Below, piece by piece: positions 27,901-61,200 of a stretch of DNA of 64,000 nucleotides (its first letter is position 1; each line of letters starts with the position of its first letter). The DNA comes from Squalus acanthias. Taxonomy: Eukaryota. The notes beneath the pieces were generated by a model. That model saw only the letters and a list, made by a program, of their open reading frames with translations. It was not told the origin of the DNA and did no database searches. A program made the position numbers and the translations under genes. The stretch covers positions 33,048,001 to 33,112,000 of the forward strand of contig CM059432.1 of the NCBI GenBank assembly GCA_030390025.1, written 5' to 3'.

Positions 27901-28003
27901 ATGTCGACTTGAGTGGGTTCGTGATCTGTAGTCCTTTCGGGATCTTGTCTGCTTTCTTGCATCTCTGTAGAAACTTGATGTCTGTGTCGATATGCGCGAT
28001 CTT
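24970..28003 (-). mobile_element. Penelope-like retroelement (RT + GIY-YIG), frameshifted
   Basis: 8-bp TSD CAAGGATC at 24962-24969 and 28004-28011; IKPADKGG, MDVSALYTSIP, GTAMG, YTRYIDDIF, NVVYLIRC..WYIGET motifs; terminal pLTR segment ending at CATCATG. Confidence 0.93.
25060..25096 (-). ncRNA. Minimal type I hammerhead ribozyme in the Penelope terminal repeat
   Basis: Minus strand reads TCAC-CTGATGA-AGGAGC-AGC-GCTCC-GAAA-GC-TT-GTGA: intact core, stem II GGAGC/GCTCC, stem I TCAC/GTGA, palindromic AAGCTT minimal stem III. Confidence 0.85.
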
Positions 28004-33621: not shown

Positions 33622-35552
33622 ATGGAGAGGGTGAGAGAACGCGCTCATCGCTTCACCGAGCGGGCCTTGGATGCTCTGGTTGACGCAGTGGAGCGCAGAC
33701 GATGCATGCTGTTCCCGGAGAGTGGCAGGAGGCCTTTGCCACGCGAGTTCAGAAGAGTGTGGAGGGAGGTGGCTCAGAGCGTCTCCTCCAGGAGCATGGT
33801 GCCCAGGACCCATGTTCAGTGCCGCAAAAAATTCAACGACCTCACTCGGGTCGTCAGGGTGAGTGGCTTTTTCTCAATACCTCTCCATCCCTCCATCTCA
33901 ACCTCACTCTATGGCCAGAGGGTCTTACAACCCCAATGCACAACACTCATGCAACACCTATGGCCCTTTCATCAAACACACACACACATTCCACACTTTG
34001 CATACAGTAAGGGCTATTCACCTATGGGAGGCACATCAGGCAAGACCATGGCTGCATATTGTAAGGGCTATTCACCTATGGGAGGCACATCAGGCAAGAC
34101 CATGGCTGCATATTGTAAGGGCTATTCACCTATGGGAGGCACATCAGGCAAGACCATGGCTGCATATTGTAAGGGCTATTCACCTATGGGAGGCACATCA
34201 GGCAAGACCATGGCTGTATATTTACTCAGATGCTGTCCTTTTTCTTGTAGGCTAAGCTGGCTCATAATCGGAGACAGCAGCAACGGACGGGTGCAGGGCG
34301 GCTTCAGCTGCAACCCCTCAGCGATCTGGAGGAGCGCGTCCACAGGATTGTGGCAAGCCGGGTGATCGGTCCCGTCGCCACTGGGGACGCCGACCCCGTT
34401 CTGGACAGCAATGGTAAGGTCATCACCTTTTTGTCCTCTGTCCTTCCACTTGTCCCTCACAATACCAGCCTTTGACACTTTCAATCCAACTTGCTAACTC
34501 GCTGCACTTATTCCTCCCTTACTGCCACCCTGTCCTCACGCTAAAGCCACTCTTGTACCTCCCTGCTTTCAGATGGTGATTCACCAGCTGAGGAGACGGG
34601 CCCTGAAGCTGCCACTGGGAGTGATGCTGCAGCTGAGGAGGAAGAGGAAGCCAGAGCATCAGTGCCACCCTCTCCCGAGGAAGCCCATGGCCACACTGGG
34701 AACATGCCTTCCCCGGAGGGGAGCAGGGGGGAAGGGGCTGATGATGGTGAAGCTCCAGGACCCAGCGGGCTGCAGCAACACCATGGGGGGGGGAGGGAAG
34801 AACGGGAGCCTTCTCCCCAGAGGGAGAGTATGCCAGACACTCCTACTGCAATGGACGCAGAGGAGGAGCGGCTGATTGCAGAAATGAACAGCCAGGCGGT
34901 GGGCATGCACACTGAGCTCATGGGTGCAGTGGGAAGGGTGCCCGAATGCATTGAGGCACTGGCAAGGAGTGTGGAGCACTTCGCTGTAGCACAGGCGGAT
35001 GCCACACTAAAGCTTAGTGCTGCAATTCAGTCACTGGCTGCCAGGAACCCATCTGAGACTGCTCTCATGCAGACTCAGATTGAGGCCACGCGAGCACTGA
35101 CTGCTGCCATCCTCGATGGTTCGTGCACATGTCCCCGGGGCTGTCACCGCGCCGCAGCAGGCCAGCAATCTGTTCTCCAGCAAATTGCTCCGGATGCTGA
35201 AGTGCTGCCCCGTGGGAGTGCCAGTGTGTCGGGCGAGCAGGGAGTTGCTGTCCTCTCTCACGATGACAGCATTCCTGCTGCCAACACTGTCACTTCTCCA
35301 CTGCACTTGCCACCGCCTGTAGGACAGACTGCTGCCGCCCATGCAGAGTTGGTGCAGTCTGCAGCCGGGCCCTCCAGGCCCAGAACTGGTCGAGGCCGTC
35401 CTTCAGGGGCATCTGCAGTGTCAGGGTCTGACGAGCAGCAGCCTTCCACCAGCCTTGCTGCAGCCACTGAGGTCCCATTACGGAGGAGCAGTAGGGTTAG
35501 AAGGGGGGAAGTGCACAAGGGAAGGAGATCACCCTCGAAGGGCAAAAAGTAG
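33622..35552 (+). CDS. Intact three-exon Myb/SANT-like Harbinger protein (459 aa): exons 33622-33858, 34251-34413, 34573-35552
   Basis: GT-AG introns with compatible phases (0 and 1) give one open frame of 1380 nt; Myb/trihelix RFTERALDALV..W.EVA..QCRKKFNDL, then RTGAG motif, acidic, coiled-coil and basic tail. Confidence 0.85.
34007..34220. repeat. 54-bp tandem repeat x4 in Myb intron 1 (x2 in copies 1 and 3)
   Basis: Unit GTAAGGGCTATTCACCTATGGGAGGCACATCAGGCAAGACCATGGCTGCATATT at 34007, 34061, 34115 and 34169. Confidence 0.95.
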
Positions 35553-35846
35553 GAGGTGTGCCAAAATGCTGGTCATTTTTTTATTAAAGGCCGAGGTTCA
35601 TGGCCCAACTTTTGTTTAGTGTTTTGGACATTATCTCCAGGTTGTGAGAACCAGTTATGTTATTGACTGTTTTTTTGTGTTTATTTCTATGAGTTTGTCA
35701 GGAGGAATTGACACACACAGAGTTTGTAAAATAAATAAGTTTCTGTATTCAAAATATACATGGCTGGTGGTTGGAATTATTGGTGCCTTGGCCGGCTTAG
35801 GGGTTGCGTGCTGGGTTGATTCGTGTTTGTAGCAATGGCAGGGGCC

Positions 35847-37005
35847 CTAGAAGCGGCTTGCTATTAGTCGTTGACGGACGGCCCTTGCAGTTTGACCATT
35901 GTGGGCCGCCCTCCTGCATTGGTGCTGCTGATGATCATCGTCCTCGTCCTGTTCCTCCTCTTCCTCCTCCTCCTCTGGTGGTGCTACAAGGCCTGGTGGC
36001 ATTGGCTGGGTCCTGAGGATTGCCATGTTGTGCAACATGCAGCACACGACTACGAACTTCGAAACTTGCTCAGGCGAGTACTGCAGGGCTCCTCCGGAAT
36101 GGTCCAGACAGCGGAACCGTTGTTTCAGCACGCCGATTGTGCGCTCAATAATGTTCCTGGTTGCTTGATGGCTTTCCTGGTACCGCAGCTCAGCAGGGGT
36201 GTTTGGCGCACGGAGCGGTGTCATCAGCCAGGTGCTCAATGCGTACCCCTTGTCCCCCAGAAGCCAACCAACTGGCTGATGCGGTGCCTCAAAGTTCTGC
36301 CACAGTAGTCTGGCGCAGGATGAAAGCATCGTGGCAGCTGCCCGGATAGTGGGCATTGACAGCGAGAATCACCTGTCTGTGGTCACAGACCAACTGCACA
36401 TTCAAGGAATGGAACCCCTTTCTGTTCCTGAACTCCTCTGCATTCTCTCGCAGAGCACGCAAAGCCACATGCATGCAGTCAATGGCGCCCTGCACCATGG
36501 GGAAGCCCGCTACCCTCGCAAAGCCCATAGCACGGTCATGCTGCTTGTCTGGGGTCATAGGGAAAGAGATGAAGTCTCGTCTCCTTCTGAAGAGGGCATT
36601 GGTGACCTGCCGGATGCAGCGATGCACTGCAAACTGGGAGATATTGGCGAGGTCCCCAACAGCAGCTTGGAATGAGCCAGTGGCGTAGAAGTTCAAAGCC
36701 ACTGTGACCTTCACTGCCACCGACAGAGACGTCCTGGACCTCAGCTGAGGCTGCAGATCTGGCTGCAGCAGGTGGCAGAGCTCAGTGACCACCTCCTTGC
36801 TGAATCGCAGCCTTCGCAAACACAGCTCCTCGGACATATGGATGTAGGAGAGCTGTTCACGATATACCCTGGGAGGGTAAGCTCTCCTGTACATGCGCCT
36901 GATGGCCCTCCTCCGTCTGGCCATCATTGCCACTCTCTGTCTGCGTCTCACTATCCTCCGATTCAGCTGGAGCAGGACGACGCCCCCAATCATTGCAGCC
37001 CCCAT
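35847..37005 (-). pseudogene. HARBI1-like transposase, family A copy 2, single frameshift at about 36290
   Basis: ORF 36289..37005 (N-terminal half to TVAEL*) continues in ORF 35847..36356 ([26 protein letters not shown]). Confidence 0.9.
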
Positions 37006-37106
37006 ATTCTCTTTGCCAGAAAAGTAATGAGGTACAGCAACTAAAGTTGCAACAAAGTTAGGATGAACTAGGCCAAACTACCTCACAAAGCGTTGAGTCA
37101 ATGTAG

Positions 37107-38655: not shown

Positions 38656-40299
38656 TATAAGGGATTCGGACGGTGGCTCTGTGCTTAGCCTGGGTGCTAG
38701 TGCGGGGTTAGGCCTTGTCGCCTGTTCTGGTCTCCAGCCAGCCTGGTAACACTAGACACCTGTGAGTGGTTCGACCCACTCGCCCTTACGGTTCTGACAC
38801 TGGACTTAGGTGCGAGAGCAATAATGCAGAGAAAACTCAGGTAGACCCGGTTGAATAGTATGAAATGGAAAATCTTTATTGCATATTGTTCAAGATTACG
38901 AAATACATGTCATAAGCACAGATTAAATGACAGTACAAGCTTACATACATTTATGAAACTAGGTTTAGGGAAACGAGGAGTGCACGACACATCGTAAAAG
39001 GGGACACACATTATAATTATCCTTAAAACAAAAACCCTCCCCTAACAATACCTGTCCTAATCTAGATCTGTAGGATCGAGAATCATGCTCACCACTCGTG
39101 ATAACTCGGAGAATTCTAAAACGATGCTCGGATGTTTTCGCCACAACACCTGACTATTCACATGTTGATCAGGGGTCTCTGTACCCCACTTGTTTACTCG
39201 CTTCTGCTCCGGCTAGCAGGCTGGACCGTCTGCTGTCATGAAGATCTGTGTTGGTCTCGGATTTCTGATACTACTCAAAAAAAAAAAAAAAAAAAGTCTT
39301 CCTGTGCCCTACACCGGTTGTCGGTAGAACTCGAAGAAAAGTCTTCTGGTGCCAGTTGTGGAGTAGCCGATAGAATTCAAAGAAGTGGTTAATCGATTTT
39401 TCGGGCGCGGTCGGGGTTTACTGACCGCGGCGGCACATGTAGTCGTCTTCTTCTATTCTCATCTCATCTCATCTCATCTCCTCTCGGGCCTTCGGTTCCA
39501 ACACCGTTTACCGACTTCTCGGGATGGTGCGCCCGCTTGCAGGCCTTCGCAGACCAGCTCTCCACAGATCTTCGCGGCAAGCCACGAGGTTGACTCCCGA
39601 AAAATCAGCGGATCAGAGAATAAGAGTCAAGAGCTCGAGTCGGTGGTCGGTAAAGAATAAGAGAAAGATGGACGTTTGGACACTACAGTTATAGTACTGT
39701 AACCCCTTATCTCCCGCCCAATCTTAAGGGTCATGTTTTGGCGCTCAAACTTCTTGTATGGGGTGGTACTTGTCGTAAATGGGTTTCGGTGATACTTGTA
39801 ACTGTCTGAGTACCCGTTAACATTTCTCCCATTGTGGAACCGGCTAGGAGTCTCCCTGGAGGGGTTTTGGGGGCCTCCGAATTCTTGCTGTGAATACCCG
39901 CGAACGGCTCTCTCATCGTATAGCCACGGGGAATTTGCGTATCCATGTCTTTGGATGGGCCCTTGATTGCCCAGTACAATAGCCCTTGTCTGTGCATGGA
40001 AAAACCGATTCCAGCACTTATATTTCTTGCTTAGGTGTTAAAAAATGCAAAACGATCGCGTCTTGTCTTATATCAATATGCTGAGTGCTGTCCGATCTTG
40101 CTGAAATGTTTATTGAAACACCATCTTGTCTGCCCACTGAAAATCTAGAACCTTCTGCCACGAGGCGCGGCGGCCATTTTACAGGCTTCTTGTGTCCGTT
40201 TTTGAACCTGACAGCATTTTGCTGAAATAAAGCTGTTTATACGAAACTGTATGTCTCTATCTCGTTATTACGAAATCGCGATAATTTGCGAATTCTACA
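38656..40299 (-). repeat. 3' LTR (terminal CA mutated to TA)
   Basis: Direct repeat of 50349-51995; plus strand begins TATAAGGG instead of TGTAAGGG; minus-strand AATAAA at 38875-38880. Confidence 0.95.
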
Positions 40300-40312
40300 G
40301 TCCCTCCTGTTG
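40300..40312 (-). other. Polypurine tract
   Basis: Minus strand CAACAGGAGGGAC directly abuts TGTAGAATTC of the 3' LTR. Confidence 0.7.
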
Positions 40313-40642
40313 ATGCGAATAACTCCGCTTATCATATCAAAAAGTGGTGGTGAGCAATATTATCTTGATTCTCCATATCCAAATATTCCCATAACTTAAA
40401 ACTATCTAGGGTCTCCGTGTCGTCCTTATTTCCCAGGAAAAATTACATTTTAATAGAACCGTAGGCAGCATTTGCCTTTAACTTACACCGCGTGTATTTC
40501 TTCCAGGTGTAACAGGCCGATGCCTCTCGCACCACCTGCATATGCATATTTTTTATTATTCAGGAAAAAGAAAACAAAATAATCAAACAACCATTTTAAC
40601 AACACAAATGTAAAATGATCAAAACCAACTCTTGAACATACA

Positions 40643-43600
40643 GGGGTAGAAATTAGGTCGCGCCCCATTTGGGGCGCAAATATCGTCTGGACGCAAATAT
40701 TAGCGCCTAGCGCTAATTATCGGCACTGACTGGAAACTTCACTTTTACCGCCCCGGGAGGTGAGTGGAGCGCTAAAGCAGGCGCTGCACACCTGTCTTAA
40801 GGCGCAAAGGCCAAGGAGTGAGGCGCTAACTCAGCGCGCGAGCGCAGCGCAGCTGCTGCCAGTTAGCGAGGGAACACAGACACACTGGCGCCGGCCACTT
40901 CTTAAAGCGGGGGGGGGGGGGGGGGCAACTTGCTCCCCAGCCACACCCTGCTCATTGCAGCCTTGAATCTCGGCCTGGAGAGACCTGTGAATCCATTTTG
41001 CTGCCAAGCATGGAGAGGGTGAGAGAACGCGCTCATCGCTTCACCGAGCGGGCCTTGGATGCTCTGGTTGGCGCGGTGGAGCGCAGACGATGTATGCTCT
41101 TCCCTGAGAGTGGCAGGAGGCCTTTGCCACGCGAGTTCAGAAGAGTGTGGAGGGAGGTGGCTCAGAGCGTCTCCTCCAGGAGCATGGTGCCCAGGACCCA
41201 TACTCAATGCCGCAAAAAGTTCAACGACCTCACTCGGGTCGTCAGGGTGAGTGGCTTTTTCTCAATACCTCTCCATCCCTCCATCTCAACCTCACTCTAT
41301 GGCCAGAGGGTCTTAAAACCCCAATGCACAACACTCATCCAACACCTATGGCCCTTTCATCAAACACACACACACATTCCACACTTTGCATACAGTAAGG
41401 GCTATTCACCTATGGGAGGCACATCAGGCAAGACCATGGCTGCATACAGTAAGGGCTATTCACCTATGGGAGGCACATCAGGCAAGACCATGGCTGTATA
41501 TTTACTCAGATGCTGTCCTTTTTCTTGCAGGCCAAGCTGGCACATAATAGGAGACAGCAGCAACGGACAGGTGGAGGGCGGCCTCAGCTGCAACCCCTCA
41601 GCGATCTTGAGCGCGTCCACAGGATTGTGGGAAGCCGGGTGATCGGTCCCGTCGCCACTGGAGACGCCGACCCCGTTCTGGACAGCAATGGTAAGGTCAT
41701 CACCTTTTTGTCCTCTGTCCTTCCACTTGTCCCTCACGACACCAGCCTTTGACACTTTCAATCCAACTTGCTAACTCGCTGCACTTATTCCTCCCTTACT
41801 GCCACCCTGTCCTCACGCTAAAGCCACTCTTGTACCTCCCTGCTTTCAGATGGTGATTCACCAGCTGAGGAGACGGGCCCTGAAGCTGCCGTTGGGAGTG
41901 ATGCTGCAGCTGAGGAGGAAGAGGAAGCCGGAGCATCAGTGCCACCCTCTCCCGAGGAAGCCCATGCCCACACTGGGAACACGCCTTCCCTGGAGGGTAG
42001 CAGGGGGGAAGGGTCTGATGAGGGTGAAGCTCCAGGACCCAGCGGGCTGCAGCAACGCCATGGGGGCGGTAGGGAAGAACGGGGGCCTTCTCCCCAGAGG
42101 GAGAGTATGCCAGACACTCCTACTGCAATGGACGCAGAGGAGGAGCGGCTGATCGCAGAAATGAACACCCAGGTGGTGGGCATGCACACTGAGCTCATGG
42201 GTGCAGTGGGAAGGGTGCCCGAATGCATTGAGTCACTGGCAAGGAGTGTGGTGCACTTCGCTGTAGCACAGGCGGATGCCACACTAACGCTTAGTGCTGC
42301 AATTCAGTCACTGGCTGCCATGATCCCATCTCTGACTGCTCTCATACAGACTCAGATTGAGGTCACGCGAGCACAGACTGCTGCCAACCTCGATGGTTCA
42401 TGCACATGTCCCCGGGGCTGTCACCGCGCCGCAGCAGGCCAGCAATCTGTTCTCCGGCAGATTGCTCCGGATGCTGAAGTGCTGCCCCGTGGGAGTGCCA
42501 GTGTGTCGGGCGAGCAGGGAGTTGCTGTCCTCTCTCATGATGACAGCATTCCTGCTGCCAACACTGTCACTTCTCCACTGCACTTGCCACCGCCTGTAGG
42601 ACAGACTGCTGCCGCCCATGCAGAGTTGGTGCAGTCTGCAGCCGGGCCCTCCAGGCCCAGAACTGGTCGAGGCCGTCCTTCAGGGGCATCTGCAGTGTCA
42701 GGGTCTGACGAGCAGCAGCCTTCCACCAGCCTTGCTGCAGCCACTGAGGTCCCATTACGGAGGAGCAGTAGGGTTAGAAGGGGGGAAGTGCGCAAGGGAA
42801 GGAGATCACCCTCGAAGGGCAAAAAGTAGGAGGTGTGACAAAATGCTGGTCATTTTTTTATTAAAGGTCGAGGTTCATGGTCCAACTTTTGTTTAGTGTT
42901 TTGGACATTATCTCCAGGTTGTGAGAACCAGTTATGTTATTGACTTTTTTTGTGTTTATTTCTATGAGTTTGTCATGAGGAATTGACACACACAGAGTTT
43001 GTAAAATAAATAAGTTTCTGTATTCAAAATATACATGGTTGGTGGTTGGAATTATTGGTGCCTTGACCGGCTTAGGGGTTGCGTGCTGGGTTCATTAATG
43101 TTGTTAGAAGCGGCTTGCTATTAGCCGTTGACGGACGGCCCTTGCAGTTTGACCATTGTGGGCCGCCCTCCTGCCTTGGTGCTGCTGATGATCATCGTCC
43201 TCGTCCTCTTCCTCCTCTTCCTCCTCCTCCTCTGGTGGTGCTCCAAGGCCTGGTGGCATTGGCTGGGTCCTGAGGATTGCCATGTTATGCAACATGCAGC
43301 ACACGACTACGAAGTTCGATACTCGCTCAGGCGAGTACTGCAGGGCTCCTCCGGAATGGTCCAGACAGCGGAACCGTTGCTTCAGCACGCCGATTGTGCG
43401 CTCAATAATGTTCCTGGTAGCTTGATGGCTCTCATTGTACCACAGCTCAGCAGGGGTGTTGGGCGTACGGAGCGGTGTCATCAGCCAGGTGCTCAATGCA
43501 TACCCCTTGTCCCCGAGAAGCCAACCAACTGGCTGATGCGGTGCCTCAAAGTTCTGCCACAGTAGTCTGGCACAGGATAAAAGCATCGTGGCAGTTGCCA

Positions 43601-44772
43601 GGATACTGGGCATTGACAGCGAGTATCAGCTGTCTGTGGTCACAGACCAACTGGACATTCAAGGAATGGAACCCCTTTCTGTTCCTGAATTCCTCGGCAT
43701 TCTCACACGGAGCACGCAAAGCCACATGCGTGCAGTCAATGGCGCCCTGCACCATGGGGAAGCCCGCTACCCTCGCAAAGCCCAGAGCATGGTCACGCTG
43801 CTTGTCTGGGGTCATGGGGAAAGAGATGAACTCTCGTCTCCTTCTGAAGAGGGCATTTGTGACCAACGGATGCAGCAATGCACCGCGAACTGGGAGATAT
43901 TGGCGAGGTCCCCAGCAGCAGCTTGAAATGAGCCAGTAGCGTAAAAGTTCAAAGCCACTGTGACCTTCACTGCCACCGACAGAGACGTCCTGGACCTCAG
44001 TTGAGGCTGCAGATCTGGCTGCAGCAGGTGGCAGAGCTCAGTGACCACCTCCTTGCTGAATCGCAGCCTTCGCAAACACAGCTCCTCGGACATATGGATG
44101 TAGGAGAGCTGTTCACGATATACCCTGGGAGGGTAAGCTCTCCTGTACATACGCCTGATGGCCCTCCTCCGTCTGGCCATCATTGCCACTCTCTCTCTGC
44201 GTCTCTGTATCCTCCGATTCAGCTGGAGCAGGACGACGCCCCCAATCAGTGCAGCCCCCATATTCTCTTTGCAAGCAAGGTAATGAAGGACAGCAACTAA
44301 AGTAGCAGCAAAGTTAGGATCAATAGGCAAAACTACCTCACAAAGCGTTGAGTCAATGTAGAAGTCTCTCTTTCTCTCTCTCCGAATCTCTCTCTCTCTC
44401 TCTCTCAGAACGAGTGGTGCAAAAATGTCGACCACAGAAAAAGACAGGAAGAGGCCCCCTTTAAATAGCGCCCCAGCCCCACAGCGATTGATAGCGTTCC
44501 AGTCTTCCGGTCGTTGGAAGCGCCAGGCGGTAAGGCAGGAGGCGCCACTCAATTTCCGCTCCGGGGCGCCACAAGGGCGTTGCACCATGGAATGACGTCA
44601 TAATCTGCGCGCGCAGGTGGTCGCAGCGGTAAGTTTTAGCGCCGCCGCACAATGTCAAGTTAAGTTCCCGAGCGGCGCAAACATCGCTGCGCCCGGGCGT
44701 TAGCGGCTTTGCGCCCCATTAGCGCCCTCTTAAGGCACTAACGGGAGGCGCAACCAACTGAATTTTTACCCC
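40643..44772. mobile_element. Harbinger family A copy 3, inserted between env and the PPT of the provirus
   Basis: TIRs GGGGTAGAAATT / AATTTTTACCCC; TSD ACA at 40640-40642 and 44773-44775; Myb gene (+) about 41010-42829; transposase (-) about 43104-44262 with two frameshifts. Confidence 0.94.
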
Positions 44773-44874
44773 ACAGAGTTCCAAACTTTGTTATTTTTTT
44801 TAGAACCTGTAACTATCAATTAAAACAATTTCGAGGCGCACGTGGGAAAACTGGAGTGGCGCCACTCTGGCCGT

Positions 44875-47226
44875 TTACGCAGCGCTTTCTTCGTGCACGC
44901 GCACGTAACGCTCTCGCCACTCTCCTGTGTTTTCGTGCTTGGTAAGGCGTTTGCCTCTCTTACAGTGCACGACCAATAAGTATATCACAATTATCACCTG
45001 GCATGCAACTAAAATGTGGGAGGTTATTCTAATCCAGGAAGGCACTTCGATGTTGGTGAACAGATCCCACCACGGTGGGATTACTATGTCTAAAATCTCT
45101 GACCCTATCTCGACAGTTTTCTGCTCAAGGGTATAAAAATGCTTCTGCGAAACCTCAACGGCTTTCAAAAGTTTGGAGAGGTGTTCAGGGAGAGGGGGAA
45201 TGAGGTATCCGAAATGCGCGACGAATCGCTGCAAGTCGGTGAAGTTCTCCTTTACTGTTAGATGAACAGTGGATGGTTCAGGGATCGGGACAATTCGCTG
45301 CTGTGCCACTTGAACTTCAGCCCTGGGTTTAAAACAGAAACTGCTGTCACTCACCGGACACCGGCTACGGTTTCCATGCTGGTAGTGTTGCGCTGCAGTG
45401 GTAACACAATATGTTCCACCCCCTATGTATGCTACCTGCGGAGGCACATGATCTTGTGCCATTGCCTCCATGGTGCAATTCATGGGCTTGGCGCCAGCCG
45501 TTCTGAACCCGCACTGTGGCGATAAAAAGGCATTCAAGTGCTGGGGACACAGGATTATGTGTGCTCCCCTGCCACGACAACCAGAGAGATCTGTACCTGT
45601 CATCGTTTGCTCCCAGCGGATGACGTAAGGTGGGACCGCTGCATAGCGAATGTGGGCTCCCCCCTGAATGACACCAATGTTCTCTACCCGATACACCGGG
45701 GCGGGCTTTGCTGTGTCGCCGAAAACCGGCATACGCAACACTATACCCATAATGGTATGGTTTGACCGTCCGCAGTCCACGGGGACTGGGTATGCTTCTG
45801 AAGCTAGCCTGAGCTGGCACGGGCTTAATGCTTTCTGAAAAGGGTGGAGCGCCTGCAGGTGTTTGTTACTTATCCAGGACGGGACGAAACCTTGTTTTAA
45901 ATCCTCCAAATTACTGCGGCCCTCGCCCAGTAACCACGCCCCGTAAAGCACGCACACCTCATTCTGCGCAGCCTGATTGGACGCATTCCGATCTTCCCTG
46001 ATCAGGGCATTTACTGTATGCGCATGTTTCTCTAGTTCAGCTATGATTTCTTTTAAATGGAGAGTCATGGCCTCGTCCTCATGTAACCCAGACCCTACCA
46101 CCTTATTTTTGTCTGTAAGGATATTCTTTAATTGGGTTTTTAAACCATTAATCTGGGTCTGCAACTCCACGTTATCTAGAGTGTTGACCACAGATGTCCC
46201 TGTATTGAACGCAGTGAACATGTCGTTCACAACACCCCTTCTTTGTCTCCCCACCTGGCCCAAAACTTCATGTGGTGCGGTGTACAAACTTGTTTTATCA
46301 ATCTCCGCAAAATCGAATTCATAAAATTGTCTAAACATATTGGTCAACAGGACCTGATATAACTGTTCCGTCTCTTTGGGGCACCACTTTGGCAACTGCA
46401 CCTCGGTGAGGTTTAAAATCACCGAGGCCACCTCGTAATGTACCCCCTGAAATAGTATCTGGTCTGTAGGGACCAGTGCCAAACCATTCCCGGGTCCCTT
46501 ACTGGTTTTAGGGCACCCTTCTTCCTTAGCCAGAACCACCGGAATCGTGGGCGGGGCCTTGTGTGGGCGCATAATGAGTTCAGTGGCGTTTACCGGGATC
46601 GGAGAGTATGGGGCTCCGCACCCCCTGGTGCTAGCATCCCACCTCATCCCTTTCCCATAATCCTGCCACTGATTCACGAAAAATATGGAGATGCCTTTGG
46701 GGCAAACGTGCTTTGACCCCCACATACATACATAAATTCCCTCATCCAGTTCCCACCATTTGTCCCAACAGACTTTCAATTGTCCGTTAGTCCACGTAAT
46801 TGTCCGATGGGTATTATTTCCCAATCGCTCCCACTCGACCAAAGAATTCCTCATATTCCTGCTCGGCTTTCGTAGCCACCACCATCGGCTCAATGGGATA
46901 TTCCCATTACAAGTCAAACAAATCCGTTTGCCGACGGTGACGCTGACTCTGGGTGCGATGATCCTCACTTTGGGGCACATTAAAGAAGTCTCCTTGTAGG
47001 CAAAACCCGTTGTGCTGGAGTATTCAGTTGAGTTTGTTCCCAGCCATCCTGGCCACCTTCCCTTGTGGAACTAAGTGGCGGTCTCCTCAGCCTCTCGCCT
47101 CCCGGTCCCATCCACCGCGATGGGGGCCGTGTACCCGGAGCATCCAAACACCACGACATCCTTGGTGCGGCCTCGATAGGCCAGTCCACATCCGATTGCC
47201 GCGAGCACTACCAGAATCTGTTCCAT
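44875..47226 (-). CDS. env: Envelope glycoprotein: signal peptide, Ig-like domain, class I fusion protein; 783 codons with one in-frame TAG at 47071-47073
   Basis: ATG at 47226 in strong context (AGGATGG), MEQILVVLAAIGCGLA signal-like peptide in frame with the 701-aa ORF 44875..46980; furin site RQRR (46237-46248); heptad repeats; Cys-rich ectodomain; W-rich MPER; TM ILVACQVIIVIYLLVVHC; basic tail with YVRV. Confidence 0.88.
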
Positions 47227-47239
47227 CCTTCCTTGGTTT

Positions 47240-47258
47240 CTGTGATCAGATAAAATGA
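47240..47258 (-). promoter_or_regulatory. Putative env splice acceptor
   Basis: Minus strand TCATTTTATCTGATCACAG|AAACCAAGGAAGG-ATG, 13 nt upstream of the env ATG. Confidence 0.55.
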
Positions 47259-47499
47259 TGTAGCCAGCCTCCCAAGAGTCTCTGGCTTTTGTGAAGGGTG
47301 AGCGGGTCCCCTGACCTCGCCTCACGTAAAAAGACATGTGCACTGGATAGATCTTTTAACTAAACCTAATCTAAACTCCCATCATTATATCTTTTACTTA
47401 TCAAACTTACAAAACTACAAACTTACAAACTTACAAACTATAAAACTTCTAACTTATCTTATAAACTGTACAGCGCCGCCCGTTCCCAGGGCGGCCTAC

Positions 47500-48515
47500 T
47501 CAAATTCTGTGAAGGCGGCCACAAGCTTTTTCCAACGGTGGGAGGGCGCTGGCCCCTCCCTTTGATCTGCCGCAGCCTGTTGCTGCTGCGCTGGGACTGG
47601 GATCTCCCTGGGCTGCTTTAGCCTTGGACCTACGCCTGGGGACATACGGGGGACTTGACCATACCTTCCTGGGCTGGGGTGTCCGACTTGACCTACGGGG
47701 AGCTACCGGGGGCAAGAACTCCAGGGCCGACGGACCGGGTTTCGAGACTTCCACCGTTGCGACCTGTGGTCCCACCACAGCCGCTGGCTCCGCCTCCCTG
47801 AACTCGGGATCTGCAGTCTCTGGCACCGCCCTACTTGGCCCTGTAGGCGGCCCTTCACTCGCAGTCCCTACCTCCCGCGAGGGCAAGACTTCCAAGGCGG
47901 ACGGACTGGGCTCTGAGGCTTCCCTCGCCACGTCCTGTGGTCCCACCACAGCCGCTGGCTCCGCCTCCCCTAGCTCCGCCTCCCTGAGTTCGGGACCTGC
48001 AGCTTCTGCTTCCACCCTGTGTGGACCTCCATCTGCAGTCCCTATCTTCCTTTTACTTGAATCGGGGGCGACCCTTTCATCCTCCGATTCCAGCTCCTCT
48101 TCGCTCGGGTCACTATCTTGGTCGAGCTCCTCGAACTCTTCCTCATCTGACTCCCAACCCCAATAAAGGATCCTACATTTTGCTAGGATGTCCTCTCCCC
48201 TGATGCAAGCTGCTTTGCCAGCCTGCGTGCCCTGCGGTCCTACCCGGGGCTGCGAGTCCCCACTCGCAGGTTTGGCCCCTGGTTGGCCCTTGTGCACCCG
48301 GCTTATACAGCTTGCACTGGTTAAAATCCCTGCTTCTGGCTACCCTGTAGGCTGCTTTTATCTCTCTAAGCTGCCCTTCTAGCCCATCTATTTTCCCCAT
48401 TAAGCGGGCGTTCTCCTCCCGTAAGGCCTGCTCTTTTAACCTGGCCTCCTTACAGGAGACCCCCTCCTGTGCGTGTCTTTTTAAAAGGACACAGGTAGGC
48501 AGGCTGCGTGGGCTC
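47500..48515 (-). other. Region replacing pol: diverged Gag coiled-coil paralogue plus acidic/Pro-rich ORF (47500..48297)
   Basis: EARLKEQALREENARLMGKIDGLEGQLREIKAAYRVA aligns with Gag EAKLNEGRIRERCARLAAQIKAQEESLKGVRAAYKMA; 265-aa ORF with a duplicated EAEPAAVVGPQ..PSALE.LP unit; no PR, RT, RNase H or IN motifs. Confidence 0.6.
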
Positions 48516-48518
48516 TAG

Positions 48519-50344
48519 TCATTGGGTACTGGCGGACGGGGCTGCGGCATCTGCGGGGCCGGTAGCGACTGCCACCCTTCCTTGCGAAATCATGAGGGTC
48601 CGCATGGCTCCCAACATTGATTCTATCACATCGGGATGGATAGGCACACCAGCTCCCATTTCAGAGACAGGCGCCTGGGCTCGGGCTGCGGGATTTTTAT
48701 CCCTGGACTCCTTCCAGGGGTTCCTGCAGTTCTTGCGCCAGTGCCCTGTCTTTCCGCACCCGTAACAAGCACTACTGGCTTGTGGGCGCGATTTCCCTCC
48801 TGATGCCACTCCTTTTGAGCCGGGGCTGCGGGCCGTGCCTCATGCACCTTTCCCTCAAGGGGACGTGCCCCCGTACTCCTAGTATTACGGTACCCTACCG
48901 TGAGTTGGTTTAAGACCGACTCCTCAGTTGTGATGGGGTTAGTGGGATCAAACCATGCTTTGGCCTGCTCCCTGACGGTTGGCAAGCTGTTGGCTACTAC
49001 ACATCTGAGCCAGTGAGCTAAACCGACACCGTCTAAATCGACGCGCTCGGGCGCGCCTGGGCAGCTACGCTGATAGACAGGCCACAGCCTGTCGGCGAAA
49101 ACCTTCGGGGGTTCTCCCTCCATCTGCTTTGTCTGTCCCAATCTAACGAACGGACCTTCATCGTCCACCCCCAACACCTCTAGGACCTCATCCCTTAATT
49201 GCTCATAGGTCCTATTTCCCCTTTTGCTCGCGTCTGAGAGACACTGGAGGATCGAGCTGTCTAAAGAGAACAGCAGCATTTTTGCCCTTTCCCCATCGTC
49301 GCAGCCGTTAATGGCTGCGGTCTGCTCTACCTCCCTGAAATGTACGGAAGGGTCGTCTGATTCGGACAGCTTCCGTACGTGACTGATCATAGCCCTCAGC
49401 TGGTGTGCGTTGTGCGGCAACACAAGCTGGCTGAGGAGATCCCCAGCTGCCCCATTGGCTCCCACCGGGCCCCTTTTCTGGCCCGTGACCAGACACAACG
49501 GTCCCGGCTTCACTGCTACCTCAGGGGGCTGTACTACCTCGGGGACCTCTTCCTCCACTTCTACCACTTCCTCCTTTACCCAGGTTCCCGAATAGCTGGG
49601 TGGCGCGGAGGGCACAGTGGCAAATACCTCCTCTGCTTTGTTCGGTAGGGATTTTTGGAATTCCCCACCCACCGGTGGCTGGTGTGCTGACGGGCTGATA
49701 AGGCACGCCATGCCGTGCGCTTTATTGAGGGCCTCTTTAAGGTTCCCTATCTCTCTCTGGCAGACGCTGTGGTCGGCCCCCTCATGTTTATCCTCGAGGG
49801 CCATCTTATATGCCGCCCTAACTCCCTTTAAGCTCTCTTCCTGGGCTTTTATTTGAGCAGCTAGGCGGGCACATCGTTCCCTAATTCTGCCCTCATTTAA
49901 TTTTGCCTCAGTGACCTGGCACTCGAGGTAATCTATTTTCGCCTCATGGTGGTTGGCGACTAACTGGCGTTCCTGATGCAACGCATTTAAAGACGCGATG
50001 AGCTGCTGCCCCCCCCCCGCGACCTTTTCATCCATCTCCACCTCTAAACCCTTGATCTGAGCTGCCTGTGCTACGATGACCTGGTCCGAAATCTGGACTT
50101 GCCTTTTATAACACATCAGCCAAACCGCTTTCTCTACCGATCTTTTATGATCTTTGCTGCCTGTCCACCTGCTGGCTGTGTCTAGCGGACGCTTATCCAC
50201 CAGCAGGTCACTTATCCATCTCTTAGTCAAATTAACTTTCCCAAAAACATAATCGGCTATTCTCTCTTCCATAACATTTCGCCCATTCATACCAGGGTCA
50301 AACACATTATTTTCTCGCTGCCAGTGTCCTGCCGCGGTCGCCAT
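48519..50344 (-). CDS. gag: Gag (572-aa ORF; CCHC nucleocapsid knuckle in the -1 frame, ending at 48519)
   Basis: Coiled coil, PSAPPSY late domain, capsid-like region with MHR-like QMEGEPPKVFADRL; CYGCGKTGHWRKNC in ORF 48519..48809. Confidence 0.88.
50326..50343 (-). other. Primer-binding site, tRNA-Ser-like
   Basis: TGGCGACCGCGGCAGGAC begins 5 nt inside the 5' LTR end and resembles the complement of vertebrate tRNA-Ser 3' ends (TGGCGTAGTCGGCAGGA, TGGCGACGAGG). The tRNA identity is inferred. Confidence 0.7.
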
Positions 50345-50348
50345 TTTC

Positions 50349-51995
50349 TGTAAGGGATTCGGACGGTGGCTCTGTGCTTAGCCTGGGTGCTAGTGCGGGG
50401 TTAGGCCTTGTCGCCTGTTCTGGTCTCCAGCCAGCCTGGTAACACTAGACACCTGTGAGTGGTTCGACCCACTCGCCCTTACGGTTCTGACACTGGACTT
50501 AGGTGCGAGAGCAATAATGCAGAGAAAACTCAGGTAGACCCGGTTGAATAGTACGAAATGGAAAATCTTTATTGCATATTGTTCAAGATTACGAAATACA
50601 TGTCATAAGCACAGATTAAATGACAGTACAAGCTTACATACATTTATGAAACTAGGTTTAGGGAAACGAGGAGCGCACGACACATCGTAAAAGGGGACAC
50701 ACATTATAATTATCCTTAAAACAAAAACCCTCCCCTATCAATACCTGTCCTAATCTAGATCTGTAGGATCGAGAATCATGCTCACCACTCGTGATAACTC
50801 GGAGAATTCTAAAACGATGCTCGGATGTTTTCGCCACAACACCTGACTATTCACGTGTTGATCAGGGGTCTCTGTACCCCATTTGTTTACTCGCTTCTGC
50901 TCCGGCTAGCAGGCTGGACCGTCTGCTGTCATGAAGATCTGTGTTGGTCTCGGATTTCTGATACTACTCAAAAAAAAAAAAAGAGTCTTCCTGTGCCCTA
51001 CACTGGTTGTCGGTAGAACTCGAAGAAAAGTCTTCTGGTGCCAGTTGTGGAGTAGCCGATAGAATTCAAAGAAGTGGTTAATCGATTTTTCGGGCGCGGT
51101 CGGGGTTTACTGACCGCGGCGGCACATGTAGTCGTCTTCTTCTCTTCTCATCTCTTCTCATCTCATCTCCTCTCGGGCCTTCGGTTCCAACACCGTTTAC
51201 CGACTTCTCGGGATGGTGCGCCCGCTTGCAGGCCTTCGCAGACCAGCTCTCCACAGATCTTCGCGGCAAGCCACGAGGTTGACTCCCGGAAAATCAGCGG
51301 ATCAGAGAATAAGAGTCAAGAGCTCGAGTCGGTGGTCGGTAAAGAATAAGAGAAAGATGGACGTTTGGACACTACAGTTATAGTACTGTAATCCCTTATC
51401 TCCCGCCCAATCTTAAGGTTCATCTTTTGTCATGTTTTGGCGCTCAAACTTCTTGTATGGGGTGGTACTTGTCGTAAATGGGTTTCGGTGATACTTGTAA
51501 CTGTCTGAGTACCCGTTAACATTTCTCCCATTGTGGAACCGGCTAGGAGTCTCCCTGGAGGGGTTTTGGGAGCCTCCGAATTCTTGCTGTGAGTACCCGC
51601 GAACGGCTCTCTCATCGTAGAGCCTTGGGGAATTTGTGTATCAATGTCTTTGGATGGGCCCTTGATTGCCCAGTACAATAGCCCTCGTCTGTGCATGGAA
51701 AAACCGATTCCACCACTTATATTTCTTGCTTAGGTGTTAAAAAATGCAAAACGATCGCGTCTTGTCTTATATCAATATGCTGAGTGCTGTCTGATCTTGC
51801 TGAAATGTTTATTGAAACACCATCTTGTCTGCCCACTGAAAATCTAGAACCTTCTGCCACGAGGCGCGGCGGCCATTTTACAGGCTTCTTGTGTCCGTTT
51901 TTGAACCTGACAGCATTTTGCTGAAATAAAGCTGTTTATACGAAACTGTATGTCTCTATCTTATTACGAAATCGCGATAATTTGCGAATTCTACA
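50349..51995 (-). repeat. 5' LTR with putative promoter (CCAAT/GC box 51403-51411, TATAA 51378-51382)
   Basis: TG..CA termini; promoter motifs are conserved in all three LTR copies; AATAAA at 50568-50573. Confidence 0.93.
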
Positions 51996-52430
51996 CTTAT
52001 CCCAATGTCTGATTGGGCAGCAGGCACTGTACAGCCACTACTGATTACAAGCAGCTGCTCGACCCTTTCCTCATGCTCTGATAAATCCCTTAGCGTGACG
52101 ACACCACCACCTGTCAATGCACGCTCTCTGGCGTTGTTAACAATTTTACTCTAAAATGAAAAGAGAAAATATGAAACGTCATGAAACTGCAGTTTTTTCA
52201 GCAGAGACCACCCACCTGCCTTTGAGACAAGAACAGAAGCTGCTTTGGAGACAGGGTGTTTTTTCACTCACTAATTGAAATTTTACAACTCAAACCTGTA
52301 GAGTCAAGATAAGCGCACAATAGATGACCCTGAGCTGGCCCCAAAGCCATAAAATGTTATGACAAGCTCACATGCCTGGATAATGAAGTCACTTTGCAAC
52401 ACCCATGCATCCAAGAGCTTTTTAAAAATA

Positions 52431-54960
52431 GTTCAGTTTCCGATTGGACTACTTCACTTTCCATCTTAATGAAGAATTCTATCATGTTATGGTCACTCTT
52501 CCCTAAAGGACCCCGCACAACAAGATTATTAATTAACCCCTTCTCATTGCACAATACCCAATCTAGGATAGCCTGTTCCCTGGTTGGCTCTTCAACGTAC
52601 TGGTCTAAAAAACCATCTCGTACACACCCCAGGAATTCATCCTCCACAGTATTATTGCTAATTTGGTTTGGCCAGTCTATATGTAGATTAAAGACACCCA
52701 TGATTACTGTAGTACCCTTGTTACATGCATCTCTAATTTCTTGTTTGATGCCATCCCCTACATTACCATTACTGTTTGGAGGCCTATAGACAACTCCCAC
52801 CAATGTTTTCTGCCCCTTGGTGCTTCTTAGCTCCACCCAGACTGATTCTACATCTTGATTTTCCAAGCCAATATCCTTTCTCACTATTGCTCTGATTTCA
52901 TCCTTTACTAACAATGCCACCCCACCTCCTTGTCCTTTTTGCCTGTCCTTCCTAAATATCGAATATCCTTGGATATTCAGCTCCCAGCCTTGGTCACCCT
53001 GTAGCCATGTCTCCGTAATTGCAATTATATCGTATCCATTTACATCTATTTGCGCTGTTAATTCGTCTACCTTATTATGAATGCATCGTGCCTTTAGATT
53101 TGTCTCTAACATTTTTTGTACTATGGCCCTATTTGCCTTATTACCATTTTTTTCTTACCTGGACTCTATTTGTTAGTGCACTCTTGTTTGTCAGGAAGGG
53201 ACATAGCGTACAATCTGGTTATCGTTACCCCAATCACCTTTCCTGCACTGCTTCCTTGTCTTTTCTCTTTAGCATTCGGATTTCTCTCCACTGGGACCGC
53301 CCCCCCCCCTTATTTAGTTTAAAGCTCTATCTACCTCCCTAGTTATTTGATTTGCTCGAACTCTGGTCCCAGCATGGTTCAAGTGTAATCCGTCCCAGTG
53401 GAACAGCTCCTCTTTCGCCAGTACCCCGACGAATCGAAACCCACTTCTCCCACACCAATCTTTGAGCTACGCATCTCCCTGATCCTATTGATGCTCTGCC
53501 AATTTGCTCGTTGCTCAGGTAATAATCGAGATTATTACCTTTGTGGTTCTGCTTTTTACTTTAGTCCCTAGCTGCTCATACTCTCTCAGCAGAACCTTTT
53601 TCTTAGTCCTACCTATGCCGTTGGTACCTACGTGGACTACGACAACTGGATCCTCCCCCTCCCACTCCAAGTTCTTCTCCAGCCCGAGGAGATGTCCTTT
53701 ACCCTGGCACCGGGTAGGCAATATAGCCTTCGGGACTCATCCTCCTGGCTGCAGAGAACACTGTCTTTCTCCCCCCCTAACTACTGCCGCCTACTACAAC
53801 CACCTTCCTTTTTACTTCCCCCCACTTGAACGGCTTCCTGTACCACGGTGCCATGGTCAGTTTGCTCATCGTCCCCGCACTTGTCCACAAGGGTTGCGAG
53901 AACCTCTACTCTATTGGACAAGTGCAGGGACTGAGGCTCCTGCAATACTACCTCTTGGATCCCTGTACCTGTCTCACTCGCAGTCACACCCTCCTGACCA
54001 CGTGTCAATTCTGAAGTATTTAATCTAAGGGGTGTGGCTGCCTCCTGGAGCAAAAGGTCCAGGTAACTTTCTCCCTCCCTGATGCCTTGCAATGTCTGCA
54101 GCTCGGACTCCAGCTCCTCAACTCTGAGCCGAAGTTCCTCGAGCCGCAAACACTTACTGCAGATGTAGTCGCCCTGGACAAAAATTTCTACAAGCTCCCA
54201 CATGTGCAGCAGCAACACATCTCCTGTTCTCCCATTATTTTATTTATTTAATTAATTAGTTTAGTGTTAATCAAATTATTTACCTCGTTTAGTTTATTAA
54301 ATTAATTAAATTAAGTTTAATTTTTAAAATTTAGTTATATGCTATATGTTAACTTATAGCCCACAGTTACTACCACAGTCACTACCAATCACTTGCCTTC
54401 CTTACCTGTGACATCACACTGCAGTTTTCTCTTGTTGTTGCAGGTCTGCTGCTGCTTTTATCCCCGCTCTCGGGCCTCGGTCTGCTCCTGCTCAGGTCTG
54501 CCGCTGCTCCGCGGGAGAAGTTAGGAAAAGCAAGGCAAAGCAGCACCTCCTTCCCCCACTTCACCGAACTCCCACACTTATTAAACTCCCAAATTGTTCA
54601 CTCTGTGCCCGCTGCACTAGTGCCGGTTGCACTCACAGGCCCCTGTATTTATACTGTTTGTAACTCAGGTGAGTCTGCTATGCTCTGCTATTGTTTCAGT
54701 AACCAGTTTAATCTAGCTCGCTAATTAACGAACTACAGCAGCTCTCCAGTAGGAGAGCTTGCTTGTTTGTCTCTGCTTAAGCCTGAAAGAAACTTAAAAA
54801 TGTAAAGTTTAAAATTTAACTTAAACAGTTGATCTTACCCAAGAGCTACTAGCAATTAACACTAGATTTTAAGAGATTAACTCTTAAAACTCCCACACTT
54901 ACCAAACTCTCAAGTTGTTCACTCTATGCCTGCTGCACTCTTCTTTCTTGTTCCCTGGCG
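52431..54960 (-). mobile_element. CR1 LINE 5' portion (5' UTR, ORF1, APE), 3'-truncated
   Basis: ORF1 fragments 53515-54218 (CSKCLRLEELRLRV, VHVGTNG); APE 52431-53112 (ITETWLQ, VYRPP, SDHNMIEF). Confidence 0.88.
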
Positions 54961-58217: not shown

Positions 58218-61200
58218 GGGCTCGATTTTCACCGGCCCATGGAGGCGGGATTGGGGGCGTGTGGGGAGTTAAAATAGCAAAAAATGGCGGGCGGGCCCAA
58301 ACCCGCCTCCGCCGAATTTTCCCAGTTGTGTTTTCAGATCCCGTTGCCGTCCTGCCTCCAAGAGGCGGGATAGGCCCTTAAGGCCATTGACAAGCTCTTA
58401 ATTGGCTCTAGAATGCCATTCTGATTTTTACAGGTTTCCCACGTGATGCACGCCTCCTCTGAAACACGACGGTGAAACCTGACGGTTACACATTTGGCTT
58501 GCTGGCTTTCAGCTGCAGCTCCACCATTAAAGAGTACTTTGGAGCAATCATCATTTGCAGGTGGCAGAACTTAGTTGTTTCAGGTCTGGGGAAACTTTAG
58601 CAGGCCTACTCATTGTTGTGGAAGTTTGGAGCCTGACACCCATCTCCAGTGTGAGCTCCTGGGAAGCCCCTCACCCCACCCTGACTCAGCGCTTCCTCAA
58701 CTGAGCCATTTGCCAGAAGAATGGGAACCATTCGGTTCCTTTGCCCCTAGACATCAGATGAGGACGAACACCAGCCGCAACTGCAGGAGCAACAACAGCA
58801 GCTCCAACATGCTGCTCAGCCACCTGTAGTTGCTCAAGGCAGAGGGCGCCAGCGCATGGATGAACATCGGCGCAGGCGATACCCCCAAAACAGGGTCTAC
58901 AGACAGAGGATCAGCTACCTCAACATGTCTGAGCAGCAGTGCCAAAGGCGGCTACGACTTTCGCGAGAGGTCGTGGGTGACATCTGCGCACTGGTGCAGC
59001 AAAACCTGGAACCCAGAGGAGCAGGTGAACATCCCTTACCAGTGGCCCTCAAAGTCACCACCGCACTCAACTTTTTTGTGTCAGGCTCATTCCAGGGATC
59101 AGCAGCAGACATCAGCGGCATCTCCCAGCCGGCCACACACACTTGCATCACACAGGTAACCGATGCCCTCTTTGCCATCGCGCACAATCACATCCATTTC
59201 TCCAAGGATCAAGCAAGTGTCACGGCGCGTGCGGTTGAATTAGCTAATCTGGCAGGCTTTCCAAGGGTGCAGGGTGTTGTTGACTGCACGCATGTGGCCT
59301 TTAAGGCACCCCATCACAATCCAGGTATTTTTGTCAACCGCAAGGGCTTCCACTCCCTCAACGTACAGCTGGTGTGTGACCACAAGAAGGAAATTTTGCA
59401 CGTTTGTGCCAAGTACCCTGGCAGTTGCCATGACTCCTTCATCCTGCGCCAGTCTAGTGTGCCTCCGCTCTTCAGTCCGCCAGACCAACTTCACGGATGG
59501 CTACTTGGAGACAAGGGCTATCCCCTGAAGAAATGGCTAATGACACCGTTGAGGAGCCCATCCAACGAGGCTGAGGAGCGCAACAACTTGAGCCACATTT
59601 CCACCAGATCCATCATCGAGCAAACCATCGGCTTGTTGAAGGTGCGCTTCAGATGCCTGGATAGATCAGGTGGAGCCCTGCAGTACGCGGCAGCCAGGGT
59701 CTCCAGAATCGTCGTAGTTTGCTGTGCGCTTCACAACATGGCACAGCGTCATGGCTTACAGATTGCTGACGTCCAAGAGGCTCCTCACATATCCTCCTCG
59801 GAGGAGGAGGGTGAAAATTAACATCTGACCGAGGCGCATTAACCAGCGACGGCAATACACGAGACCATTGCTGGCCGGGATGCAAGGAACGCACTCATCT
59901 TGGCCAGATTTGCCTAGCCTAGCCAAGCAACCACTTTTGCCTCGCAGCTTCTTGCCACAGCATCGTTAATAGCCAGGAACCATTGTCCACTCTGACCATC
60001 ATTGACAACTGCTATTCCTCCTAAGCCCGCAATGTTGAAGTCCCAATAGCGATATGACACAGGCCACAAATTTTTTAGTTATAAGAAGCTACTGATGGCT
60101 TATCAGAATTAAACATAACATTTCACCCAAGTGACAAACCTTGTGACTATTTGTGCAGTTTCTTTCTCTTACTCGTGCTTCTACGTGGTGGTTCCCCCTT
60201 GGCATCAGCAGATGTAGAGGCCCCTTGCTCACTCTGTTGCTGCTCCTGTCTCGACACCTTGGGCGGGCGTCCTCTGGGGTTGCGAGCCTATGAGGGCTCG
60301 CCAACAGTCTGCTGCTCTTGCAGCTGTGCAGGGGTTGAGACGCCGATCTCAGATGGGTGGGAACTCTGGTGGGGCTCTGACCGAGGACTTTGCAGTGTCA
60401 TGGTCGTGTGAGCGCTTGGGGAAGAGCCCCCACTTCCTTGTTCTCTGCCACCAACATCCCTCTCATGGGTCAGCCCCACCTCAGAGCTACCAAGTGGCTT
60501 GACAGCACCTTGCTGCACTTCAGGGGGGCCATGAGGACCCGTTTCTGGAAGTCCTACTGCCGAGGACTTGCCTGAAGGTCTGGCTTGATTGCTCAATAGC
60601 TGAACATCGCTCCTCAAGAGATGCCAGTCTATTCTGAACAAATACCATGTTTTCCATACCCTGGCGAATAAGCTTCTCCATGGCCGTTACCATCCTCCTG
60701 TACCGTTGCCATCCTCTCCTCTACAGTAGCCAGCCTTACCATGGAGGTAGACATAATTTCCACGGTGGTTGCCATCCTTTCCGTGGTGATGCGTTCATGC
60801 GCCACCGCCTCCACAAAGGCTCTACTCATGTTAGCGATGGACTCCTCCATTCGCTCTACACTCGCAGCGACCCTGGAGACAAAACCTGCCAGAGACTCCT
60901 GCACCTCTTCCTGGAGTTCTTCTGGATGGACCCAGAGGCAGAGGGTCGACATGCAGCTGAGCCGAGCTGGGAGAGTCCTGAGCCCTCTGACTAGGACTCT
61001 CCACTGCTTTCCCGGTGTCCACCATCTGCTGAGGCTCACTTGTGAGCTGTGATACACCAGGTGACAACACTACTCTATCTCGCGAAGGTCCCACCAAGGT
61101 GTGAGTGTCTGCACTGGAGCTGGGCTGGCTTAATTCTGCTGACGCTGCGCCCTCAGAGGTTTCAGCTTCCTCTGAGGAGTCTTGAGCCTCAGTCTGTTCC

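Follow-up and report, generated by a model that had tools for sequence, protein, structure and literature searches.

The env gene of an endogenous retrovirus (ERV), on the minus strand of a 64,000-nucleotide stretch of Squalus acanthias DNA (GCA_030390025.1, contig CM059432.1, positions 33,048,001 to 33,112,000; the window), encoded an envelope glycoprotein (Env) whose second module, D2, very likely has an immunoglobulin (Ig) V/I-type fold. This Ig-like domain came after a signal peptide and a first module, D1, at what would be the surface end of an F2-like subunit, and the head formed by these modules was probably an attachment module. The fusion part that followed resembled F-type class I fusogens, a resemblance taken as a lead from protein-language-model neighbours.

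The env frame comprised 783 codons plus the terminal stop, and its translation was broken by a single in-frame TAG (47071-47073; Table 1). Env started at Met 47226, followed by a hydrophobic signal-peptide-like segment (MEQILVVLAAIGCGLA). The start at an internal Met (46980), taken in an earlier note on this DNA, was wrong, the TAG interrupting the frame between the two. With Env starting at Met 47226 and the 68-residue D1 coming first, the Ig-like domain was therefore the second module. The same note had put this domain at the N-terminus of Env; it did lie in the N-terminal, surface-side part, but behind the signal peptide and D1, not at the extreme N-terminus. The Pro-rich linker and fusion module described downstream of the Ig domain were present, together with a furin-type site, RQRR, at Env residues 327-330, kept among relatives as RQRR or RHRR. 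Heptad-like stretches were read at residues 331-433 and 680-715, and an anchor at 731-753. Signal peptide, coiled coils and transmembrane anchor were all assigned by reading the sequence.

The strings on which an Ig domain had originally been proposed (the Cys strand, RWWWLRK, DEGIYVC and GISIFFV) were all found in the minus-strand frame. Numbered from Met 47226, ICLTC occupied residues 102-106, RWWWLRK 114-120, DEGIYVC 161-167 and GISIFFV 178-184. Cys106 and Cys167, which all nine sequences shared, were 61 residues apart (Ig V/I range about 55-75); Trp117, also invariant, stood 11 residues past Cys106 (Ig V/I range 10-15) and aligned with the Trp of CRTAM. Within the D-x-G-x-Y-x-C motif at 161-167, G, I and C were invariant across nine sequences; in some lineages Asp gave way to Glu or Lys and Glu to Gln, and in one copy Tyr to Cys. 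The Cys and Trp spacing of D2 is classical for Ig V/I-type domains.

The Pfam family Ig_3 matched the window D2 at E = 0.046-0.32, spanning positions 2-74 of the 78 in the profile; on whole proteins it gave E 0.0085 for P0006 and E 0.0027 for P0012. In this Pfam comparison, which the earlier note had proposed, all nine aligned family members were matched by Ig_3, the best of them at E 0.0013, but none reached the gathering cut-off. The nine-member profile searched against PDB sequences had the IgV domain of CRTAM on top (4h5s_A, E = 0.0024; 3rbg_A, E = 0.0045), in a full-domain alignment with both Cys, the Trp and DEG-Y-C in register; Ig superfamily (IgSF) proteins made up 6 of the 9 matches at E ≤ 10. 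In the ESM Atlas, family-bearing neighbours of D2 were V-set, I-set and ig clusters (0.92-0.95), and the ten best family-bearing matches all belonged to one family or clan.

The AlphaFold2 model of D2 alone (28 rows) had strands at B, C, D, E and F, with a predicted local distance difference test (pLDDT) score of 58.9 and a predicted template modelling (pTM) score of 0.54. The strand order A-B-C-C'-D-E-F was consistent between this model and that of D1, D2 and linker together. The 50 PDB rows listed by Foldseek for the D2 model were, by entry titles, V-domain-bearing antibody, T-cell receptor and variable new antigen receptor chains (prob 0.97-1.00; E 5e-3 to 2e-2), and VIA-align also returned Ig V domains. 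Foldseek with the 206-residue model of the three modules gave Ig V domains as well, at E 0.14 or weaker, to which little weight was given.

Conservation of D2 extended across a very large and young population of env-bearing ERVs. The window query gave 5827 first-look candidates in the 3.7-Gb genome of S. acanthias itself. The best 150 scored matches were 91-100% identical to the window across part of D1 and D2; 138 of these 150 had no stop within the match, and about 54, by our own count, lay in stop-to-stop frames of at least 800 codons. A sawshark-type query exposed more lineages in the same genome (12 of 12 loci, with 51-62% identity to the window across D1-D2). D2 was conserved in at least three divergent ERV lineages of this genome, 51-62% identical to one another. 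The named relatives in public protein sets were all from cartilaginous fishes (skate, sawshark and catshark). The earlier note had raised a varying number of Ig domains among env copies; no such variation was seen, each of the 300 best-scoring genomic matches having one D1 and one D2.

The nine-sequence alignment of D2 (49-92% identity) had 32 invariant columns, among them five Cys (103, 106, 153, 167 and 175) and Trp117. The ratio of nonsynonymous to synonymous change (dN/dS; Nei-Gojobori) over D2 was 0.07-0.10 between lineages, with dS saturated, and D2 is under purifying selection between lineages. Across seven lineages the share of the top residue was 0.76-0.90 in the strands, highest in B, C, C', D and F (0.80-0.90), and the most variable segments were C-C' (0.53), DE (0.64), FG (0.68) and BC (0.71). 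Such a distribution is in keeping with a V-type domain whose loop face varies. Residues 115, 122, 130 and 150 of the window D2 were unlike those of every other same-family copy aligned. Between the window and the divergent locus L033, D2 was 65% identical and the fusion module 80%, D1-D2 being the more divergent part.

D1 (Env residues 17-84) was separately conserved and as conserved as D2 (24 invariant columns across nine sequences). It had zero Pfam matches at E ≤ 10, its columns had zero PDB profile matches, and its pLDDT was about 30 in the 206-residue model. The earlier note had seen here the possible leftover of another Ig domain, with the TAG as a probable former Trp codon (WFHKG). At the TAG position every other aligned copy or relative carried a sense codon other than Trp. 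Since D1 had no Ig match and the TAG site was not Trp in these sequences, the idea of a second Ig remnant was unsupported; D1 is a conserved module of its own and may be a small degenerate beta domain.

Downstream of RQRR, a weakly hydrophobic peptide and a lengthy heptad-like stretch led into a Cys-rich head; another heptad-like stretch, an anchor and a 30-residue tail came after it. So read, the succession was that of F-type class I proteins: basic site, fusion peptide with heptad region, second heptad region and C-terminal anchor. The nearest ESM Atlas clusters of the fusion module (0.93-0.96 overall) were those of errantivirus Gypsy Env (PF07253) and baculovirus F (PF12259), both at 0.94-0.96, and of paramyxovirus and pneumovirus F (PF00523; Fusion_gly clusters, 0.93), with 201-216 features shared. 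The Atlas recognition value, 1842, was below the mark of 2300, and the F-type likeness was therefore weighed as a lead. The 82 residues before RQRR were about the size of an F2 chain, so that D1, D2 and the linker seem to have been added at the N-terminal end. A PDB profile search of the fusion module was spoiled by a chimeric gene model (P0003, a Niban fusion) and gave no viral match; a cleaner profile search of the module gave cartilaginous-fish proteins only. The public cartilaginous-fish gene models P0003, P0004 and P0009 were chimeras in which pieces of this Env were joined to host genes (Niban 1-like, a ZFP2-like zinc finger and a repeat protein), and are probably annotation artefacts of ERV insertions.

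Several results weighed against reading this protein as an F-type fusogen with a host-derived, Ig-like attachment head. The Ig_3 (PF13927) scores were 11.1-18.6 bits, all under the gathering cut-off of 30 bits, and D2 was therefore filed as Ig-like and not as a curated Ig_3 member. The D2 model was of moderate confidence, with pLDDT below 50 in the G-strand region, and the model of D1, D2 and linker (206 residues, 9 rows) reached a pLDDT of only 37. Foldseek of either model against the PDB gave zero matches at E ≤ 0.001, and VIA-align Z was below 8, a range that the tool's note calls common for models lacking true relatives. The PDB is very rich in Ig V domains, and a loose beta-sandwich model therefore tends to match them. 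Within lineages the dN/dS of D2 was 0.10-0.32, values biased downward because the copies were picked by protein similarity. The fusion module had no Pfam match (PF00523 included, E ≤ 10) and no PDB sequence match. An exhaustive phmmer search against 1.84 billion representatives returned 9 matches, seven of them family members, and no cellular donor; hhalign of D2 to the Ig repeats of the eight-domain IgSF protein P0010 aligned A'-B-C only, with a probability of 2.6%.

Two genome features are given for lokiretroviruses, a dual RNase H and an F-type Env, and zero of the three Orectolobiformes (Chondrichthyes) genomes screened for them were positive (Wang and Han 2020, PMC7947760). The present element was similar in having gag, pol and env and a dual RNase H, the latter also common to canonical retroviruses. 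Its Env shared with lokiretrovirus Env the signal peptide, basic cleavage site, coiled coils and C-terminal anchor, and may, like it, be closer to Mononegavirales F than to canonical retroviral Env. The start of mature lokiretrovirus Env, PGP..G(I/V)VL, was by eye similar to KGPGNGLALV here. The stretch before the cleavage site was of 314 residues here and of about 100-120 in the published lokiretrovirus Env consensus proteins compared, which had no Ig-like domain; similarity to PF00523 was reported at 2.2e-7 for one lokiretrovirus and was absent here at E ≤ 10; and the peptide after the cleavage site was less hydrophobic here. On genome features the element may belong to the lokiretroviruses; its reverse transcriptase (RT) was compared with solved structures.

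A short N-terminal chain, a furin-type site, a fusion peptide with heptad region, a head, a second heptad region and an anchor form the domain order common to F proteins, with which the present protein had no sequence-level match. Paramyxoviruses use a separate attachment protein, and none of the paramyxovirus, pneumovirus, baculovirus or errantivirus proteins is known to carry an N-terminal IgSF-type domain. Cellular V-set domains (CRTAM, 4h5s and 3rbg; TREM-1, 1u9k; TREM2, NKp44, pIgR and FcmuR) were 9-18% identical to D2 in structural alignments; D2 differed from them in its three extra invariant Cys, its Trp-rich C and E-F segments and its place in a viral fusion glycoprotein. In the viral structure library, the D2 model weakly matched iridovirus Ig-like, cytomegalovirus (CMV) UL14/UL141, adenovirus E3 and poxvirus CD200-like proteins and chelonid herpesvirus gD (E 0.09-0.4). 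These Ig-like surface glycoproteins of large DNA viruses are separate proteins, outside the fusogen. Herpes simplex gD binds receptors through an IgV-like core, and the receptor-binding domain (RBD) of Friend murine leukaemia virus (MLV) has an Ig-like beta-sandwich core. Gamma-type retroviral Env is alike in having an N-terminal beta-sandwich head, a Pro-rich region and a fusion subunit; the IgSF sequence signature is not known from its RBDs, which are carried by another type of fusion subunit, and gamma-type motifs were not found by Pfam in the present Env. The statement of the earlier note that no retroviral Env of this architecture was known agreed with a full-text search, lacking most subscription journals, in which no publication on an Ig or V-set domain in retroviral or lokiretroviral Env was found.

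Canonical V domains with Cys, Trp and DxGxYxC are overwhelmingly metazoan, and since they are a metazoan hallmark, capture of D2 from a host IgSF gene is plausible. The comparison with host genes urged by the earlier note came out negative, neither phmmer nor the profile search finding a cellular homologue beyond generic Ig similarity; the profile search, among longer proteins, gave family members only and no cellular donor. Two candidate donors were rejected: P0010 was matched only through repeated short A'-B-C stretches, and P0011 is a non-Ig repeat protein whose G..IC.TC.G repeat match was taken as chance. Sequence pointed to CRTAM/nectin-like and structure to TREM/pIgR-like V domains, and no donor family was therefore named. 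The fuller proposal, that an elasmobranch retrovirus lineage made its receptor-binding head by linking a host-derived IgSF V domain to an F-type fusogen, entry then starting from an Ig-Ig type of contact with an adhesion or immune receptor of the host, is tentative and on balance doubtful.

Alternatively, D2 was not taken from a host by the retrovirus lineage, being instead an old part of an F-type glycoprotein or part of an env acquired from another virus. This alternative is possible, although doubtful too. It would suit the generic Ig similarity, at most, of cellular proteins, phmmer having given just P0010 and P0011 outside the family, and the presence of D2 in every lineage seen (skate, sawshark and S. 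acanthias). Besides the metazoan character of canonical V domains, it is opposed by the size of related proteins, which suggests that D1, D2 and the linker were added: a large Atlas cluster of chordate F-like proteins was of 545 amino acids against 783 here. The same is suggested by the published lokiretrovirus Env consensus proteins compared, with about 100-120 residues, by eye, from signal peptide to RxKR.

As to function, a retrovirus has a single env gene and must therefore carry its binder on the fusogen itself. The faster divergence of the head, the purifying selection on it and the location of its variability in loops therefore led to its being read as an attachment head. D1 and the Ig-like domain would form this receptor-binding head, supplied in cis, with the Pro-rich linker tethering it to the fusion machine. 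Furin cleavage at RQRR would leave the head attached to the F2-like chain, and the F1-like spring would be set free once a receptor is engaged. The F-type fold, cleavage at RQRR, receptor binding and host IgSF origin we infer, each of them.

The Ig-like domain could be real and still not bind the receptor, serving as an immune decoy, ligand mimic, homophilic adhesion module or cap shielding or stabilising the prefusion trimer. This was considered unlikely, as was the corollary that attachment would fall to D1, to the linker or to the F-like head. The named BFVD neighbours of the D2 model (iridovirus Ig-like, CMV UL14/UL141, adenovirus E3 and poxvirus CD200-like proteins) were in its favour, several such Ig-like DNA-virus proteins acting in immune modulation; D1, conserved as strongly as D2, could also bind instead. 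Each retrovirus has one env product, however, and F-type fusion cores are not known to carry an attachment domain, so that some added part must bind. The most variable D2 segments were at CDR-like positions (BC, C-C' and FG loops), as would suit a binding face on which the host exerts pressure.

That D2 has no Ig fold, and is instead some other beta domain rich in Cys and Trp that bears an Ig motif by chance or convergence, was very improbable: every Ig score for D2 was sub-threshold, the WWW triplet, the E-F stretch WDKWW and the three additional invariant Cys are atypical for Ig, the G strand was poorly modelled and hhalign to the P0010 repeats was weak, but three differing sequence-based signals agreed on IgSF with full-domain alignments and Cys, Trp and DxGxYxC in register, the predicted strand order A-B-C-C'-D-E-F was found in both models, and non-Ig folds were nearly absent among the top structural rows listed.

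The provirus carrying this env spanned 38658-51995, and its long terminal repeats (LTRs) differed by 2.3%. Full-length locus L034 had gag with a CCHC knuckle, pol and then env; its pol encoded protease, RVT_1, a degenerate RNase H-like tether (RT_RNaseH_2/RT_RNaseH), RNase_H (PF00075) and rve integrase. The closest solved RTs were those of XMRV/MLV (1.8e-66) and foamy virus (2.3e-64), with Ty3 far behind (2.6e-39); the RT being closest to gammaretroviral and spumaviral ones, the element was therefore considered retrovirus-like. Nothing in the window corresponded to positions 4859-8442 of L034, a loss of about 3.6 kb of pol. The deletion junction was spanned in 6 of 19 other loci (L013, L014, L015, L017, L019 and L020) and partly in L008. 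Since the same junction occurred at other loci, the pol-deleted gag-env derivative was itself copied, and this non-autonomous form, env retained, was amplified once the deletion had occurred, presumably with pol supplied in trans. A Harbinger-like DNA transposon sat between env and the 3' LTR. The window copy is a fossil, with a premature TAG, pol lost, diverged LTRs and a transposon inserted after env.

The integrase tail was of about 280 residues, acidic and Pro/Ala-rich, with internal repeats of 171-186 nt (window 47500-48339; L021 7386-8843), and was much shorter in the divergent L033 lineage (2-1135). Elsewhere in the window, positions 2140-3758 were 78.6% identical to the LTR/leader of L034 and could represent either a solo LTR or one end of an older related provirus. 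By translations of open reading frames (ORFs), Harbinger/PIF-like copies lay at about 40300-44800, 8707-11166, 33604-37077 and 58751-59821, all of them combining a HARBI1-like transposase ORF with one further ORF. Translations also gave RT ORFs followed by a GIY-YIG nuclease-like motif at 25544-28099, suggesting a Penelope-like element, and LINE-type RT and endonuclease ORFs at 4262-6095 and 52357-53154.

Table 1. Features of the provirus and of its env gene, in window positions, ordered along the minus strand.
Feature	Position	Strand	Basis or remark
5' LTR	50351..51995	-	97.7% identity over 1652 nt to 38658-40299; matches region upstream of L034 gag
gag-like ORF	48626..50377	-	89% DNA identity to L034 gag region; no Pfam family of its own
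CCHC zinc-knuckle part of gag, in another frame	48519-48839	-	Knuckle CYGCGKTGHWRKNC; Pfam zf-CCHC on homologous L034 ORF
Internal deletion junction	48322..48490	-	Deletion took out protease, RT, RNase H and the greater part of integrase
Acidic, Pro-rich low-complexity tail	47500..48339	-	Fused to integrase in L021 and L034; no Pfam family
env gene	44875..47226	-	Translation; other copies open across the TAG position
Signal-peptide-like segment MEQILVVLAAIGCGLA	47179..47226	-	Read by eye; hydrophobic N-terminus ahead of D1 in all aligned lineages
D1, 68 residues, bracketed by Cys29 and Cys84, carries the TAG	46975..47178	-	24 invariant columns across 9 sequences
D2, very likely Ig V/I-type domain, Env 85-188	46663..46974	-	Pfam Ig_3 below cut-off, CRTAM IgV, ESM Atlas, AlphaFold, conservation
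Pro-rich linker, 60 residues, two conserved Cys, N-glycosylation sequon, conserved KGPGNG at end	46483..46662	-	Read from sequence
F2-like segment, 82 residues, furin-type RQRR (46237-46248) at end	46237..46482	-	Read from sequence
F1-like fusion subunit	44878..46236	-	Layout read from sequence; ESM Atlas neighbours
Putative fusion peptide and heptad region (then Cys-rich head)	45928-46236	-	Read from sequence
Membrane-proximal heptad region	45082-45189	-	Read from sequence
Transmembrane anchor, then 30-residue tail	44968-45036	-	Read from sequence
3' LTR	38658..40299	-	Pairs with 5' LTR of the same provirus

For a virus with an F-type fusogen and a single env gene, an extra D1 and Ig-like head before the F2-like chain would be one solution to attachment. 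If the host-derived head proposed above is real, a true IgSF V-set domain would be seen as the binder of a retroviral Env for the first time. Given a host origin, the virus would have turned a cell-recognition module into its own key, which would point to an IgSF receptor partner. Through this ERV family the range of F-type retroviral envelopes would come to include cartilaginous fishes. The family has thousands of young copies, in many of which a long env frame is open and subject to purifying selection, so that its spread by reinfection may have lasted until recently; these copies, diverged by a few per cent, are a large natural data set on the evolution of a viral binding domain.

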